A stretch of 32,000 nt of DNA, taken from contig NC_007969.1 in assembly GCF_000013905.1 (NCBI RefSeq), forward strand, positions 30,001 through 62,000. Direction: 5' to 3'. Below are positions 849 through 29,444 of this stretch, piece after piece. Position 1 is the stretch's first letter. Each line of letters starts with the position of its first letter. The translations under genes and the position numbers were made by a program. The notes under the pieces are model-generated. The model was not told the DNA's origin and did not search any database. It saw only the letters and a program-made list of their open reading frames with translations. The stretch comes from Psychrobacter cryohalolentis K5. GTDB taxonomy: Bacteria; Pseudomonadota; Gammaproteobacteria; Pseudomonadales; Moraxellaceae.

Positions 849-963
849 GACAGGCTTCCTTGTTATTTTATGAGGAGTTTTGCATGACTCACTTTAGCAA
901 AGCTGGATGGCGTGCGTGTTAGATATTGTTTATTTAGTTGCTGAATAGGAAGGTTGGTTTTTG

Positions 964-1033
964 ACTACAAAGTTGTAGTTAAAAAATTTGACTACGATTT
1001 TGTAGTTAAGTATTATGACTATAAATTTGTAGT
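964..1033 (+). promoter_or_regulatory. Three operator/iteron-like 16-bp palindromes (ACTACA-N4-TGTAGT) with exact 27-bp phasing
   Basis: ACTACAAAGTTGTAGT at 964-979 (perfect 6+6 arms), ACTACGATTTTGTAGT at 991-1006 (one arm mismatch), ACTATAAATTTGTAGT at 1018-1033 (one arm mismatch). The third copy extends to TGACTA...TAGTCA at 1016-1035. Starts are 27 bp apart, and the last copy ends 17 nt before the ATG at 1051. Confidence 0.7.
988..1016 (+). promoter_or_regulatory. Putative sigma70 promoter of the ATPase cassette
   Basis: TTGACT (988-993), a 17-nt spacer, then TATTAT (1011-1016). The -35 lies inside the second repeat unit, and palindrome 3 covers the -10/start region. AAGGA Shine-Dalgarno at 1039-1043. 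Confidence 0.55.
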
Positions 1034-1050
1034 CAACTAAGGATAAAAAG

Positions 1051-2241: not shown

Positions 2242-4309
2242 TAATATAAAAAGCCATTCAGTCTTACTTTATAACACGCAAAATATAGATGCTCAGCTAC
2301 TAAAAGCAGGATTTAGTATTCGCAAAAAAGAATACCAACGCATCTGGAAGGATATTCAAACGAGTAAAATGGCTCATCCAGAGACCCATTATCTTATTCA
2401 AGGCGTAAGAGGCGCAGGTAAAACTACTTTATTATCTCGTCTTTCCTATGAAGTTGCAGAAGACAAGAAATTAAGCGAATGGTTGATACCTATTTTATTG
2501 AATGAAGAAGAGTACGGTATATTATCGCTATTTACTTTTTGGCTACGTATTGCTGAAAAGCTAGCAGAATATGATGCTCAGTTATATTCAGAGCTTTTTC
2601 AACAAGTCTTGAGCTTAGACGATGATGCGGTAGTTGCTTGGGAGCTTATACAGCATTACTTAGATAAAAATAAGCAAAAAATTATCGTTTTTGTCGATAA
2701 TCTAGGAGAGTTATTTAAGGATTTTGATAAAGTTGAGCATGCTCAACTGCGTGAAGTATTGAGTCTTCATCCGCATATTCGTCTTATCGGTGGTTCAAGC
2801 CAATCACTAGAAGCACACTTCGATGTATCGGCTCCGTTCTACCAGTTTTTTAAACTGATAAACCTTAAGTCAATAGATGAAACGGACATGCATGAACTAC
2901 TGCGCTCTCTAGCGACACAAACTGGAGAAGAAGCAGTCAAAACGATTGAAGAAATTATTACTGAGTACCCTGAACGTATTGAAGCGGTAAGGCGGCTAAC
3001 TGACGGTGTACCTCGTACTATTGTATTGCTATTTCAAATTATTATGGAGGGAGCGAAAGAGAGTAGTTACGCCTACTTAGAAGAAACGATCGATAAGACT
3101 ACACCATTGTATAAACATCGAATGGATGACCTATCACGCCAGCAAAAAGCAATTGTACATGCTATCGCTATGAACTGGGATGCGATGAGTACCAAGGAAA
3201 TCTCTGAGCAAACTCGTTTGCCAAGCAAGACAGTATCTGCGCAATTGGTAAAGCTACAACAGCAATGGATAGTTGATAAAATTGAGACTAATACCAAGAA
3301 CCATCTTTACATTATTAGAGAGCGGTTTTTTAATATTTGGTATTTGATGCGTTATGGTAGTCAGACGGATAAGCGCCGTGTTTTATGGCTTACTAGATTT
3401 TTAGAGAGTTGGTATGATAAGAATGAGTTGAATATAAAGCTGGTTGAAATAGCTATACCTTATATAGATTTAAATGGTGCTGACGGTTTTAAGTTGCAAA
3501 GAACTAAAGAGGTATATATAAACGCTTTGCTAGCCAGTGAGCATATAGACGAAACTCTAAAGGCGAGCGTAAATATTTTCTTAAAACCATACTACAGCAA
3601 CTTAATTAGATCTGAAGAATGGGAGGTTTATAAAGTTAATCTTGAAAACTGTTTTTTAAATATAGAACTTAAAAGATATAAGGAGGCAAAACGTAATATT
3701 GAAGAAGTACTAAAATTAGATATTGGTTCTGCTCAAAATTTAATAATATTAGAAGTTGTTTATGAGTTTTTTAATGAAGATGAAGAGTTAAAGAACAAAG
3801 TAATTTCTAATATTCTTCAAGAATCAGCAAAGTCTTCAATGAGTCGTTTAATGCTATTAGTAAACATAGTTGATATGGATTATGAGAGTTCTAAGAATGT
3901 TGGTCGGATAATAGTTAATGAAACAACGTCAGAAGCAAAGCTTGATAGTGCTATATTTATGGCTTTTCAAGCATATATACAATTATGGTTCGACGAATTC
4001 GAAGATTTAGAAAGTAGTTTAGAGACACTAAGAAATAATAATCTTGTCTTTGAGGAAGGTGGAATGTTCCTAACTTTATTTGAAAATTTCCTAGTTCTTC
4101 TAATTCAGAAGAATCAGTTAGAAATAGCTTATGGACTTATGGACGAATTCATCCATCTAAAAGAGCAGTTTAAACCTATCTACTACGCCCTAGTGTCTCT
4201 ACTCAAAGATGAACGCCGACAAGAATATCTGCGTATGGGTCCAGAGTTACAAGGAACAGTAGATGAAATATTACAAAATGTCGAAGAGTATCGGGTTAAA
4301 TACTCTTAG
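2231..4309 (+). CDS. STAND/AAA+-like NTPase with central winged-helix and C-terminal helical-repeat (TPR-like) domain
   Basis: 692-aa ORF whose ATG overlaps the stop of the upstream gene by 11 nt (2231-2241). Walker A GVRGAGKTTLL (nt 2402-2428), Walker B-like IIVFVDN (nt 2681-2701), sensor-like RLIGGS, GxP-like TDGVPRTIVLL. wHTH-like LSRQQKAIVHAIAMNWDAMSTKEISEQTRLPSKTVSAQLVKLQQQWIV (about nt 3128-3325). Residues 400-692 are all-helical and repeat-like (e.g. LKRYKEAKRNIEEVLKLD). Confidence 0.8.
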   Translation: MENNNIKSHSVLLYNTQNIDAQLLKAGFSIRKKEYQRIWKDIQTSKMAHPETHYLIQGVRGAGKTTLLSRLSYEVAEDKKLSEWLIPILLNEEEYGILSLFTFWLRIAEKLAEYDAQLYSELFQQVLSLDDDAVVAWELIQHYLDKNKQKIIVFVDNLGELFKDFDKVEHAQLREVLSLHPHIRLIGGSSQSLEAHFDVSAPFYQFFKLINLKSIDETDMHELLRSLATQTGEEAVKTIEEIITEYPERIEAVRRLTDGVPRTIVLLFQIIMEGAKESSYAYLEETIDKTTPLYKHRMDDLSRQQKAIVHAIAMNWDAMSTKEISEQTRLPSKTVSAQLVKLQQQWIVDKIETNTKNHLYIIRERFFNIWYLMRYGSQTDKRRVLWLTRFLESWYDKNELNIKLVEIAIPYIDLNGADGFKLQRTKEVYINALLASEHIDETLKASVNIFLKPYYSNLIRSEEWEVYKVNLENCFLNIELKRYKEAKRNIEEVLKLDIGSAQNLIILEVVYEFFNEDEELKNKVISNILQESAKSSMSRLMLLVNIVDMDYESSKNVGRIIVNETTSEAKLDSAIFMAFQAYIQLWFDEFEDLESSLETLRNNNLVFEEGGMFLTLFENFLVLLIQKNQLEIAYGLMDEFIHLKEQFKPIYYALVSLLKDERRQEYLRMGPELQGTVDEILQNVEEYRVKYS

Positions 4310-4318
4310 ATAAAACAA

Positions 4319-4355
4319 AGGTCATAACTCAGTTCCAAAGAATAAGTTATGACCT
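4319..4355. terminator. Hairpin shared by the convergent ATPase cassette and the DsrE-like gene
   Basis: Perfect 11-bp stem aggtcataact (4319-4329) / agttatgacct (4345-4355) with a 15-nt loop. On the minus strand it is followed by a T-rich tract (ctttgtttta). There is no T-run on the plus strand. Confidence 0.55.
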
Positions 4356-4385: not shown

Positions 4386-4763
4386 CTAATTCAACTGCAA
4401 CGACCCTTTTGCGTTCATCAACAGCTCAACCACATCATCCCCACTAATGACCGTGAAGCGCTTATCAATGGCTGATTCTTCTACGCCACCATGTTTCATA
4501 CACGCGCCGCAAACCAATACTTGACCGCCTTTTTCGATAAAGGCTTCTAGTAATTCGCCAGCAGGTTCAAAGGGATCGCCAATATCGACATTATCTAAAG
4601 CGTTTGGCAATGCCAAATGCACCGCGTCCACCATCAATATGACTGATGCAGAGTGACCTTTTTTAAGTGCCACACCCGCCATAGTAAAAGCTAAGGTGAT
4701 CTTGCTTGGGTTTGACTCACTATTATCAAACAGCGTACCGACATAATCCGTATTATTAACCAT
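4386..4763 (-). CDS. DsrE/DsrF-like sulfur-relay family protein
   Basis: 125 aa. The layout ...KITLAFTMAGVALKKGHSASVILMVDAVHL...VLVCGACMKHGG... matches the DsrE-like fold pattern (recall-based). Confidence 0.65.
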   Translation of the reverse strand: MVNNTDYVGTLFDNSESNPSKITLAFTMAGVALKKGHSASVILMVDAVHLALPNALDNVDIGDPFEPAGELLEAFIEKGGQVLVCGACMKHGGVEESAIDKRFTVISGDDVVELLMNAKGSLQLN

Positions 4764-5008
4764 ATTATTTTCCTTTATTAGACTGTTTCTAATTGGATAG
4801 TATTCAGTTGAGTATAAAACTCACTACTATCCTAGCATTGATTATATTTATTTATATAATGTATTGTTAGCAAACAGTAGTTATAAGGTTAACTGATTGT
4901 GAATAGCTGTCTATGAAAAAATTGATCATGACAAGTGGATTTTGACGAAGCACTGCGATGTAAATGGTTAAATAATCAGTCCTTATTTTGAGGTAAGCCT
5001 AGCAAAAC

Positions 5009-5551
5009 CTAAGATTGTGGCGGCCATGGACGGTCGGCATCACTGACAATCCATTCTGCCACATAGCCGCTCGGCGGTAGCTGCCAATCCGATTGGTCTA
5101 AGGCTGCCAGTACTCGTGCCGTCTCGATGACCTTACCGCCTTTGGTGACGCCTGTACGTAGTAGTGCCGACGAGCAAGGCTTGCCTTTTACCCACATCGA
5201 TTGCTCAATATATATCCAGCGCTCATCGAAGCCGACGATTTTGGTCTTCATGGTGACTTTTTCAAAAGCACGAATACGTTTGCGATATTGGATGGTACTA
5301 CCAGCCACGACCAAGCCCCAACGCTGTCTAAGCAATTGAGTGCCGAGCCCGCTCCGTACTGCAAAGTCGGTACGCCCCATATCATAAAGGGTCAGCACGC
5401 GACCATTATTCATTTCCAAGAAATTATCAATATCTGTCAGACGGCAGCGAAAGGTAATCTCACTGGTTTCTTTGAACGTTAAAGTATTGCCTTTTTTCAC
5501 TTGCAGCGCGGCATGGGCGATGGTGCTGGCGTAACGGATAAATGGATACAT
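5009..5551 (-). CDS. Hotdog-fold acyl-CoA thioesterase family protein
   Basis: 180 aa. The pattern TFRCRLTDIDNFLEMNNGRVLTLYDMGRTDF...VVAGSTIQYRKRIRAFEKV is typical of thioesterase-like hotdog proteins. Confidence 0.6.
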   Translation of the reverse strand: MYPFIRYASTIAHAALQVKKGNTLTFKETSEITFRCRLTDIDNFLEMNNGRVLTLYDMGRTDFAVRSGLGTQLLRQRWGLVVAGSTIQYRKRIRAFEKVTMKTKIVGFDERWIYIEQSMWVKGKPCSSALLRTGVTKGGKVIETARVLAALDQSDWQLPPSGYVAEWIVSDADRPWPPQS

Positions 5552-5603
5552 AAAGCAGTCTCAAAATATTTAAAGATAAAAACGATGTTTTTTATTTTAT
5601 AAT

Positions 5604-6656
5604 TTATCTAATTTTATTAGATGGCACGCCAATATGATTAAAGTAGGCACTCACGGTTTCAGGTATCCAGTTGATGTCAAACTTTGATTTTTTACTTGGA
5701 GTTTTTACATTGCTATTGCTTGTACGATAACGCAAATAGCCGATATGACCCCCGTGTGCCGTATCTAATATGGTGACACTGTCTGAGACATCATTGGGCG
5801 TGGCAGTAAAGCCAATAAAGGGATCGTCTTTGGCGCTAATAAGCAACAGCGGGCGTGTGACATTCCTTAAGTGAGGTAGGGCAGAGGAGGAGCGGTAGTA
5901 ATCATTATTAGAGCGGTAACCATGCCTAGGCGCAGTGAAGATATTATCAAAATCGCTAATGCGTTTTACCGCTTTGATAGAAGCAATCTCGTCTGCGGTA
6001 ATTTCATTTGCTAAGGCTTTTTTGATAATCGGATTGAGTAAATAAGGGGTATAGATACGATGACTCAAAAAGCTATGCATCGTAATAGCAGCCGATGACA
6101 TATCAACTGGCGCAGATATTACCGCTGCGCCGTCGCATAGCGCCTCATCACCATATTCACCCATATACTTTGCCAAGGCATTACCGCCAAGTGACACGCC
6201 AACCCCATAGATATGGGCGTAATTCTCATGCAAGTTCTCTAACATATGATGCACCTCGCCCGTGTCACCAGCGTTATAAAACACTTTGCCATTAGCGGGA
6301 ATACCACCGCAACTGCGAAAGTGAGCGACGACAAAATGCCAGCCTTGCGCATGCATCTGATATGCCAAGGCACGCGCATAATGACTGTCACTGCTGCCTT
6401 CCATCCCATGAAAAAGTACGATTAATGGTGTTTGTTCAAGTTTGCCATTTTCTAAATCTTGGACAGGATGAGCATCATAAAAGTCATAAGCGATATCAGT
6501 TTCGCAAAGTGAGTCTTGTTTAATCACGCGTCGGTAATTCGGTGTTTTTGGCGCAAAAAACTTCGGTAAAATACTTTGCAAGTGCGGATTGGTGAGCCAA
6601 AACGGCGGTTTAAAAGGGGCAGGTGCGAATGGTTTTGTCGACTTTGAGGTTGGCAT
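5604..6656 (-). CDS. yheT: Alpha/beta-fold hydrolase, YheT family
   Basis: 350 aa. NPHLQSILPKFF, PLIVLFHGMEGSSDSHY, nucleophile elbow GVSLGGN, SAKDDPF and HGGHIGYL are collinear with E. coli YheT as I recall it. Confidence 0.7.
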   Translation of the reverse strand: MPTSKSTKPFAPAPFKPPFWLTNPHLQSILPKFFAPKTPNYRRVIKQDSLCETDIAYDFYDAHPVQDLENGKLEQTPLIVLFHGMEGSSDSHYARALAYQMHAQGWHFVVAHFRSCGGIPANGKVFYNAGDTGEVHHMLENLHENYAHIYGVGVSLGGNALAKYMGEYGDEALCDGAAVISAPVDMSSAAITMHSFLSHRIYTPYLLNPIIKKALANEITADEIASIKAVKRISDFDNIFTAPRHGYRSNNDYYRSSSALPHLRNVTRPLLLISAKDDPFIGFTATPNDVSDSVTILDTAHGGHIGYLRYRTSNSNVKTPSKKSKFDINWIPETVSAYFNHIGVPSNKIR

Positions 6657-28939: not shown

Positions 28940-29395
28940 TTAAACTGTAAAGTGGGTCAGCTCATAGCCGAGTTGTTGATAGCTTTTATATTTATGACGA
29001 CCTTCTTGCACACTAGCTGCATCAGGTTTTATCAGCTCAAGGACACGAGTAGGTTTCGCATTGATAGTAGCTGTCATAAAAGTGCTTACTGGATGTATAG
29101 TGGTATTAAGAACCATACCTTTAAAGTTAGCAGGCATATAATTGCTAAGAAGTACAGGCGCTAACGCTTTATGGTTGATATCAGTATCAGCATTCAAAAG
29201 GCGTTGATGGGGGATAAAGCTAGTAGCCTCTTGCTCCCATAATGCCTTATCAAGCGTCGATAGCAATTCATCATCGTCGATAAGAATTAACAACGATTGA
29301 TTGCTTTTATTAAGCGCGGTTTGGGTCAGCTGACAAATAAAGCCCAAGAAATCTTGGGCTTTATTCTCAGTTAATACATAGAAGCTAACGTTCAT
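28940..29395 (-). CDS. holC: DNA polymerase III subunit chi
   Basis: 151 aa. FYVLTEN..., LDKALWEQEATSFIPH, and conserved pepA-holC adjacency. Confidence 0.8.
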   Translation of the reverse strand: MNVSFYVLTENKAQDFLGFICQLTQTALNKSNQSLLILIDDDELLSTLDKALWEQEATSFIPHQRLLNADTDINHKALAPVLLSNYMPANFKGMVLNTTIHPVSTFMTATINAKPTRVLELIKPDAASVQEGRHKYKSYQQLGYELTHFTV

Positions 29396-29402
29396 AAACT
29401 GA

Positions 29403-29444
29403 TTTTCATTAATTGGTTTTCATTAATTGGTTCTCATTAATAAG
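29403..29444. repeat. 14-bp tandem repeat, 3 units, in the pepA-holC spacer
   Basis: ttttcattaattgg (29403-29416), ttttcattaattgg (29417-29430), ttctcattaataag (29431-29444). Confidence 0.85.

Follow-up and report, generated by a model that had tools for sequence, protein, structure and literature searches.

We have analysed a 32,000-nt stretch of Psychrobacter cryohalolentis K5 (contig NC_007969.1, positions 30,001 to 62,000; henceforth the window), in which three phased palindromes lie directly upstream of a gene pair, p1-p2, encoding two ATPases. Based on sequence comparisons, we consider it likely that this array consists of operators read by the winged helix of the second protein, P2, and that it autoregulates the p1-p2 promoter, probably by repression. 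The array was conserved ahead of the p1-p2 cassette in more than ten bacterial phyla, and the base at one position of its half-sites followed the identity of one P2 residue, number 341.

The array lies in the intergenic DNA that separates the P1 open reading frame (ORF) from a divergent nitronate-monooxygenase gene on the minus strand (1-848). The repeat search returned one direct-repeat family, with three 27-nt copies starting at 960, 987 and 1014 (spacing 27 + 27), and Tandem Repeats Finder reported a period of 27 with 2.7 copies and a score of 88. Both agreed with the earlier note on this DNA, which had described units starting at 961, 988 and 1015 with an exact 27-bp period. The 6-bp arms and 4-bp gap given there were exact for unit 1, and units 2 and 3 matched them at 5/6. 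Across homologues, the conserved unit is a 22-bp palindrome, with 8-bp arms of the TTGACTAC / GTAGTCAA type separated by a 6-bp spacer that is 91% A/T. Allowing up to one mismatch, ACTAC-N6-GTAGT occurred three times in the window, always within the array, with 0.54 occurrences expected.

The promoter scan also recovered the TTGACT -35 hexamer that had been placed in the second unit and the TATTAT located 17 nt further on, a combination matching 10/12 consensus positions. Judging from the position of these hexamers, transcription would start at about 1022-1024. The third palindrome had been described as sitting over the -10/start region. It does cover the predicted start, together with the first ~13 transcribed bases, and ends 2 nt before the AAGGA, but only 2 nt are shared with the -10. 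As the TTGAC arms are palindromic, mirror -35 elements are inevitable; a promoter-like site on the minus strand at 1009-1036 (TTGACT, 16 nt, AATACT) arises from the right arm of unit 3 and faces the divergent monooxygenase gene.

A genome scan using one genome per species gave 80 P1 loci, to which 80 further metagenome loci were added, and the combined analysis comprised 136 loci. The 80 genome loci include Psychrobacter, Moraxella, Pseudoalteromonas, Colwellia, Methylococcales, SAR324, Sericytochromatia and many Bacteroidota, in addition to Clostridium, KSB1, Calditrichota, Desulfobacterota, Campylobacterota, Fusobacteriota and Fibrobacterota. The P2 core (N-terminal 400 aa) was encoded directly after P1 in 80/80 of them, and phased palindromes were present just upstream of P1 in almost all. 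Hence, a search for the motif ahead of homologous cassettes, a check already proposed when the array was first described, found phased palindromes in Psychrobacter and more than ten other phyla. The motif-density scan covered 79 genome loci (13-kb loci) plus the window. The degenerate core RCWAH-N6-DTWGY occurred at 17 per kb from -140 to -10 of P1 and at 0.19 per kb elsewhere (~0.9 Mb), the density upstream of P1 being about 90 times that of the remaining DNA. Adjacent units were spaced by exactly 27 bp in 87/100 pairs and by 28 bp in 5/100. Two units were found in 67 of the 136 loci, three in 60, four in one, ten in one, and one or none in seven, so that 127/136 genome and metagenome loci carried either two or three.

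Within the loci scanned, only one comparable unit pair was found away from P1, at locus L063, where it lies 1.3 kb upstream. There (4700-5980), an IS630-like transposase encoded by two overlapping minus-strand ORFs separates the operator pair from a P1 that is short of ~20 N-terminal residues; this locus is a natural disruption of the cassette by an IS630-like insertion. At the opposite extreme, the SAR324 locus L019 (5707-5971) carries about ten units at an exact 27-bp period, partly organised as 54-bp and 81-bp higher-order repeats. This expanded array may reflect tandem expansion, or may be evidence for a filament-like assembly.

The flanking genes of the cassette were not conserved across loci, and in Psychrobacter loci with differing upstream flanks the alignment homology began at unit 1. 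Since the array is conserved upstream of P1 while the neighbours and flanks differ, it belongs to the cassette and travels with it, and p1-p2 is best explained as a self-contained, horizontally mobile two-gene cassette. The arms are conserved across phyla and the spacers drift. The outer half-site TTGAC is nearly universal, and the inner half-site is characteristic of the clade: ACTAC in Psychrobacter, ACTAT in Moraxella, and ACAAT, ACAAA, ACAAC or, in some Bacteroidota, the TTTGCAAT/GCAAT type elsewhere. In Moraxella, all three units have changed together on both arms, from ACTAC/GTAGT to ACTAT/ATAGT.

The loci with the TTTGCAAT half-site (L045, L046, L049, L056 and L080, from Runella, Chitinophagaceae and Segetibacter) do not have the TTGAC -35 look. 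Their gap reads TAnnTTTG, resembling the Bacteroidota -7 promoter element, and their P2 proteins show an otherwise invariant K333 replaced by N and a 5-residue insertion before the recognition helix. As all of these loci fall into one lineage, or into two sister lineages, the changes are inseparable from phylogeny.

The overlap between array and promoter was also a general property. Most loci have a TAnnnT hexamer 16-18 nt after the TTGAC of one of their units. This hexamer lies within the 5-bp gap and the initial 2 nt of the following unit; the last unit often starts with AT instead of TT because the -10 hexamer runs into these two positions. The promoter-bearing unit is the middle one in three-unit arrays, the last in Clostridium-type two-unit arrays and the first in KSB1-type arrays. 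TAnnAT was kept in 10/10 Moraxellaceae loci, and the homologous promoters are near consensus, up to TTGACA/17/TATAAT. With a promoter this close to consensus an activator would not be needed, and, combined with a unit lying across the start site, it amounts to a repressor geometry. We therefore infer from geometry and promoter strength that the array would act in repression rather than in activation.

We have investigated which of the two proteins could read the palindromes by scoring every aligned column of P1 and P2 (~800) against the base at half-site position 8. In 75 genome loci, a lysine at P2 residue 341 predicted C at this position without error (15/15 K loci and 0/60 others), and no other P1 or P2 residue among the ~800 columns came within three errors of predicting it. 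When the 136 loci were considered, C was present in at least 50% of the half-sites in 27/27 loci with K or R at residue 341 and in 4/109 loci with other residues, the next-best column giving 13 errors. Counting both arms, 115/132 half-sites of the K/R loci carried C. The left and right arms have the same composition and carry the same position-8 base, which indicates one kind of reader on both half-sites.

The association was found repeatedly in the P2 tree. K/R341 arose in six clades of a tree built by the unweighted pair group method with arithmetic mean, and the K loci fall in separate P2 lineages, each with a closer non-K relative carrying T or A. Such relatives are the Moraxella locus L008 (E341, ACTAT) for Psychrobacter and L039 (Q341, ACAAT/A) for the Campylobacterota group. 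An independent metagenome set gave ACAAC or ACACC in K loci and ACAAA in related Q loci, whose P2 proteins are 70-75% identical. Four prospective look-ups were picked by protein sequence alone: the R341 locus had C in 6/6 half-sites (ACTAC), the V341 locus T in 6/6 (ACTAT), the Q locus T in 6/6, and the K locus C in 2/4. In the recognition code that would result, G:C goes with Lys or Arg at residue 341 and A:T with Gln, Glu or Val. Among specific protein-DNA contacts, the commonest known is that of lysine or arginine with guanine in the major groove. Covariation at half-site positions 6 (T/A) and 3-4 (GA/TG) was also considered and discarded, as it was limited to single clades and could not be separated from phylogeny.

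Two other Psychrobacter species offered a comparison within the genus. In their loci, L007 and L009, P1 is only 49-51% identical to the P1 of the window, whereas the P2 N-terminal core is 93% and 83% identical, its winged helix is identical and the operator is unchanged. A divergent P1 next to a closely related P2 core suggests that recombination has swapped P1 within the cassette. Taken with the covariation, these sequence data point to P2, and not P1, as the likely reader, and we hold with fair confidence that its winged helix is the domain involved. A host global regulator was rejected as a reader, given that the motif is nearly absent from the ~0.9 Mb of flanking DNA and covaries with a protein of the cassette.

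The AlphaFold2 model of P2, with a predicted local distance difference test score (pLDDT) of 79, comprises an NTPase domain (50-215), a helical domain (217-299), the winged helix (303-362) and an all-alpha repeat tail (381-691). By helical periodicity, residue 341 of helix 332-344 lies on the face opposite to the hydrophobic V335, L339 and L342. Residues S332, K333, S336, A337, Q338 and L339 were invariant in the aligned homologues; S332, K333 and S336, which precede residue 341 in the helix, would face the invariant TTGAC. No LuxR-type helix-turn-helix (HTH) or OmpR-type Pfam domain was detected in P2 or in ten homologues, and the winged helix adjoining the NTPase core is the only DNA-binding candidate in this protein.

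By fold, the P2 core was closest to ORC4 and to the DNA-bound archaeal Orc1/Cdc6 (2v1u, 2qby), followed by Apaf-1 and NLRs. The archaeal proteins contact DNA with the winged helix that corresponds to the one in P2. Its domain matches were weak (NACHT, nSTAND and AAA_16, with the winged helix weakly matching MarR_2 and Csa3-HTH), and a sequence search of the PDB with P2 gave no match at E<=1. One P2 homologue had a short N-terminal match to the Pfam family ORC-CDC6-like. The homologues end in a TPR or Sel1 tail of varying length, the proteins ranging from 516 to 952 aa. The P1 family is represented by 1709 representatives of 50%-identity clusters (E<=1e-3). P1 itself matched Pfam families weakly (ATPase_2, AAA_22, AAA_35), and its model (pLDDT 89) combined an AAA+ module and a lid with a winged helix at the C-terminal end (319-382). 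Its best fold matches were PAB2304 (2qen) and archaeal ORC2/Orc1/Cdc6, and, apart from two unrelated proteins at chance level, a profile search of the PDB matched 2fna and 2qen only. The top Foldseek matches of both P1 and P2 were 1w5t, 2qby and 2v1u, with target-normalised TM-scores of 0.41-0.57. Neither P1 nor P2 matched a Rep family in the domain and profile scans.

The Walker B motif of P2 is D156-N157 (window 2696-2701) instead of D-E or D-D and was invariant in 26 aligned homologues; P1 keeps D-E. P2 may therefore be a switch subunit that hydrolyses slowly or not at all, the active ATPase being P1. The features of the array and of the two genes are collected in Table 1.

Table 1. Array, promoter and protein features of the p1-p2 cassette, in window coordinates
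Feature	Position	Strand	Description
Operator unit 1	961-982	.	22-bp palindrome TTGACTAC-AAAGTT-GTAGTTAA (full TTGACTACAAAGTTGTAGTTAA); 7/8 arm pairs complementary
Operator unit 2	988-1009	.	TTGACTAC-GATTTT-GTAGTTAA (full TTGACTACGATTTTGTAGTTAA); its left arm provides the -35 hexamer
Operator unit 3	1015-1036	.	ATGACTAT-AAATTT-GTAGTCAA (full ATGACTATAAATTTGTAGTCAA); covers the predicted transcription start
Predicted sigma-70 -35, TTGACT	988-993	+	From the promoter scan; inside unit 2
Predicted -10, TATTAT	1011-1016	+	17-nt spacer after the -35; last 2 nt are the first 2 of unit 3
Ribosome-binding site, AAGGA	1039-1043	+	7 nt ahead of the P1 ATG; read from the sequence
P1	1051-2241	+	396-aa AAA+ ATPase of the ATPase_2 type; Walker A APRRVGKS, Walker B IDEF, lid, C-terminal winged helix
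P1 C-terminal winged helix	2005-2196	+	Residues 319-382; no residue tracking operator specificity
P2	2231-4309	+	692-aa STAND/ORC-like NTPase; 11-nt overlap with the end of P1
P2 winged helix	3137-3316	+	Residues 303-362; proposed operator-binding domain; secondary structure from the model
P2 recognition helix (predicted)	3224-3262	+	Residues 332-344 (SKTVSAQLVKLQQ); K341 codon at 3251-3253

These data are best explained by the following mechanism. Each 22-bp unit is made of two inverted half-sites TTGAC-W-A-N, in which the outer TTGAC coincides with the sigma-70 -35 consensus sequence and the inner bases would set the clade-specific specificity. Two P2 winged helices would probably occupy each palindrome in a two-fold arrangement, with adjacent P2 dimers probably touching each other; such contacts between neighbouring dimers would explain the rigid 27-bp period. 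As unit 2 would supply the -35, the predicted -10 would fall in the gap ahead of unit 3, and unit 3 would lie over the start site, an occupied array would shut RNA polymerase out and keep p1-p2 at a low, autoregulated level. Through its repeat-domain sensor, the state of P2 (nucleotide or ligand) would presumably govern release from the operators, perhaps along with P1. While the array, its conservation and period, the promoter overlap, the folds and the protein-DNA covariation were computed directly, binding by P2, the dimer stoichiometry, repression rather than activation and signal-dependent release are inferred. The earlier note had suggested that one of the ATPases bearing a winged helix may autoregulate the operon, and the conservation of the array, the embedded promoter and the covariation of residue 341 all lend support to this suggestion.

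Several points weigh against the operator reading. A clade with Q341 (L144-L146) has 50-75% C, together with an S336A change, and L161 has E341 yet 50% C; because of these exceptions, residue 341 cannot be the sole specificity determinant. Sigma-70 promoter calls are not valid for Bacteroidota, to which many of the homologues belong. Head-to-tail oligomers are the norm for STAND and ORC proteins, and a two-fold dimer on a palindrome would be unusual for them. Class II activators overlap the -35 just as the proposed repressor does, and the operator model leaves the role of P1 unexplained.

A broader view of the cassette, to which we give some credence while holding it improbable, is that P1-P2 are widespread, undescribed ORC/STAND-like signalling ATPases in which the winged helix adjoining the NTPase core would itself read DNA sequence-specifically, and that the array would be a platform for a nucleotide-dependent, periodic assembly of P2 with P1, forming a DNA-anchored NLR-like sensor instead of an ordinary repressor. 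Ligand sensing by the repeat domain would then be coupled to the cassette being derepressed and possibly to an effect of the ATPases, once released or assembled, on invading or host DNA.

In another reading, which we regard as unlikely, the array would mainly be a nucleation site resembling iterons, origin recognition boxes (ORBs) or DnaA boxes, on which P1/P2 would build an ATP-dependent oligomer or filament. The overlap with the promoter would then be secondary, and the main output would be mobile-element replication, DNA remodelling or DNA-anchored sensing, not autoregulation. The 27-bp period is indeed rigid also between units 1 and 2, where promoter geometry sets no constraint, and the ten units of L019 keep it exactly; in addition, the cassette has no obvious enzymatic effector and is present on some plasmids. 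However, most loci have only two or three units, nearly all have the array squeezed into the stretch from the -35 to the ribosome-binding site, and the surroundings of the window cassette are ordinary chromosomal genes. The pair is accompanied by no Rep, MCM or helicase-loader gene, the neighbours are not conserved, and the two ORFs closest to the cassette on either side included no helicase or replication gene in the loci examined. No separate AT-rich unwinding stretch was noticed beside the array, AT-richness not having been measured. The earlier note had offered an iteron- or ORB-like array as an alternative to autoregulation. What stood of it is the likeness of both proteins, by fold, to Orc1/Cdc6 and ORC subunits; on the other side, the sites are symmetric palindromes placed on a promoter and not directional iterons, and a Rep gene is lacking. 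A plasmid Rep-iteron origin in particular was rejected, based on the symmetry of the sites, P1 and P2 not being Rep-family proteins, the chromosomal housekeeping context and the lack of conserved neighbours.

It is also rather improbable that P2 binds the array as an activator, in the manner of MalT and other STAND regulators, and that the cassette is signal-induced. The architecture of P2 (NTPase, winged helix and TPR-like sensor) is common to MalT-type activators, and binding at sites that overlap the -35 is, as a matter of general knowledge, what class II activators do. Still, the promoter is already near consensus in the window, as it is in several homologues (TTGACA/TATAAT). One unit lies downstream of the -10, over the start site, which is a blocking position, and the KSB1-type two-unit arrays cover both the -10 and the start region.

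That P1, or a P1-P2 heterodimer, reads the palindromes appears distinctly unlikely. P1 is the first gene after the operators and also ends in a winged helix, modelled with high confidence. Within some clades, one residue in the third helix of this domain (G, N or H) seemed to follow AAT, AAA or AAC half-sites. Yet the pattern failed in gammaproteobacteria, in which ACTAC is found with N, T and D alike and ACAAT with D or E, and no P1 residue came close to the performance of P2 residue 341 at position 8. P1 was rejected as the reader once this apparent pattern had broken down across clades. Moreover, the P1 proteins of L007 and L009, about 50% identical to that of the window, have changed helix residues while the operator is the same. 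A heterodimer is disfavoured by the equal composition of the arms and by the presence of C on both arms in K/R loci, which point to one reader.

Finally, it is very improbable that the inverted repeats function as RNA stem-loops in a long 5' leader, or as DNA cruciforms, instead of as protein sites. In favour of this, each unit folds as an RNA hairpin (-7.7 to -8.6 kcal/mol; z-scores -4 to -6) and arm changes are often symmetric. Against it, no Rfam family reached its gathering score (a scan of 800-1150 gave sub-threshold microRNA-like matches only), the arm sequence and not mere pairing is conserved across phyla, and each arm accepts A or T at the innermost position whether or not the two pair. 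In many units the palindrome continues through the centre, leaving no loop (e.g., TTGACAATAAATTTATTGTCAA), the predicted promoter would transcribe only the right arm of unit 3, and the half-site covaries with a protein residue. An RNA element was rejected on the spectrum of arm mismatches, which argues against selection for pairing, the commonest being the unpairable A.A (135) and T.T (127), above all at position 8.

We have compared the operator reading with known systems. In DnaA autoregulation, binding of this AAA+ protein to the repeated boxes of the dnaA promoter depends on nucleotide. DnaA differs from the cassette in its asymmetric 9-mer boxes, in the use of a domain IV helix-turn-helix and in having a genome-wide regulon and an origin, and its homology is restricted to the AAA+ fold. 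Autorepressors also control defence and toxin-antitoxin operons, BrxR-controlled defence systems being of this kind. CapW, a WYL-domain repressor of the cyclic-oligonucleotide-based antiphage signalling system CBASS (PMC9122588), likewise is a cassette-encoded winged-helix protein acting on promoter-overlapping palindromes of a mobile operon, with presumed release by a signal. Regulators of this type are small dedicated repressors encoded next to the system, whereas here the proposed repressor would be one of two large NTPases and the operators form a strictly periodic array.

The archaeal Orc1/Cdc6-ORB system (2v1u, 2qby) resembles the cassette in combining an AAA+ module and a lid with a winged helix at the C-terminus, whose recognition helix and wing read repeats located by the protein's own gene. 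ORB elements, however, flank an unwinding element at a chromosomal origin and serve to recruit MCM, while the cassette sites are 22-bp symmetric palindromes with a fixed 27-bp period, placed on a promoter with no replication machinery nearby. In contrast to Orc1/Cdc6, P2 carries a STAND-like repeat sensor, and sequence similarity between them is undetectable. The STAND factors MalT (8bob), AfsR/SARP and GutR resemble P2 in their STAND P-loop NTPase, winged-helix core and TPR-like sensor, and in binding several phased sites at a promoter. They differ in having a separate effector domain (LuxR-type HTH or OmpR-type), in recognising direct repeats and in activating other operons; the P2 sites are palindromic, and its own operon was the only target found in the 13-kb loci and the window. 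The closest solved relatives of P1 by fold and profile, PAB2304 (2qen) and SSO1545 (2fna) of the ATPase_2 family PF01637, are structural-genomics proteins with no known function or DNA target. We found no description of this gene pair or of its operator in the searchable literature. What would be new, judging from these comparisons, is an autoregulatory operator array read by a winged helix that adjoins an ORC/STAND NTPase core and arranged on a strict 27-bp lattice across phyla.

If the operator reading holds, both the reader of a cis-element and the residue that sets its specificity would be predicted for a two-ATPase cassette distributed over more than ten phyla, with a simple and checkable recognition code at residue 341. 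It would also mean that a winged helix beside a STAND/ORC NTPase core reads DNA sequence-specifically in bacteria, linking NLR-like sensors with ORC-like DNA recognition. The operator is, in addition, a practical marker for finding and orienting cassettes in genomes.

As to the function of the cassette, a role in conflict or defence would be plausible. P1 and P2 had no significant match to described defence systems in PADLOC 2023, NCBIfam 2026 or PHROGs; the best matches to defence models were marginal and partial (mad8, 4.6e-6 over ~55 residues of the P-loop region; DS41_1, 0.0026). No cassette homologue was found in the phage collection, and Pfam scans of the window proteins and homologues detected no recognisable enzymatic effector in the cassette. 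Several of 100 flanking proteins matched defence families (~10-15 among the matches listed), such as MADS, PARIS AriA, retron effectors, methylases and PDC-S01, most neighbours being housekeeping genes.

A copy of the cassette lies in a mixed island of the Moraxella osloensis plasmid pNP7-2 (L081, 67937-85124), together with QatD and QueC-like genes, a protein kinase, IS3 and other transposases, a dUTPase and an N-6 DNA methylase. In one metagenome contig, the cassette adjoins a resolvase and a PIN-TPR-GreABC protein.

Two further repeats were observed in the window. A 10-bp inverted repeat with a loop of 16 nt (GGTCATAACT ... AGTTATGACC) is located at 4320-4355, where P2 and the DsrE-like gene converge. 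It may terminate transcription in both directions, although the terminator scan made no call there. At 29391-29441, a 14-bp tandem repeat of 3.6 copies (TTCATTAATTGGTT) occupies a short gap between two minus-strand ORFs.

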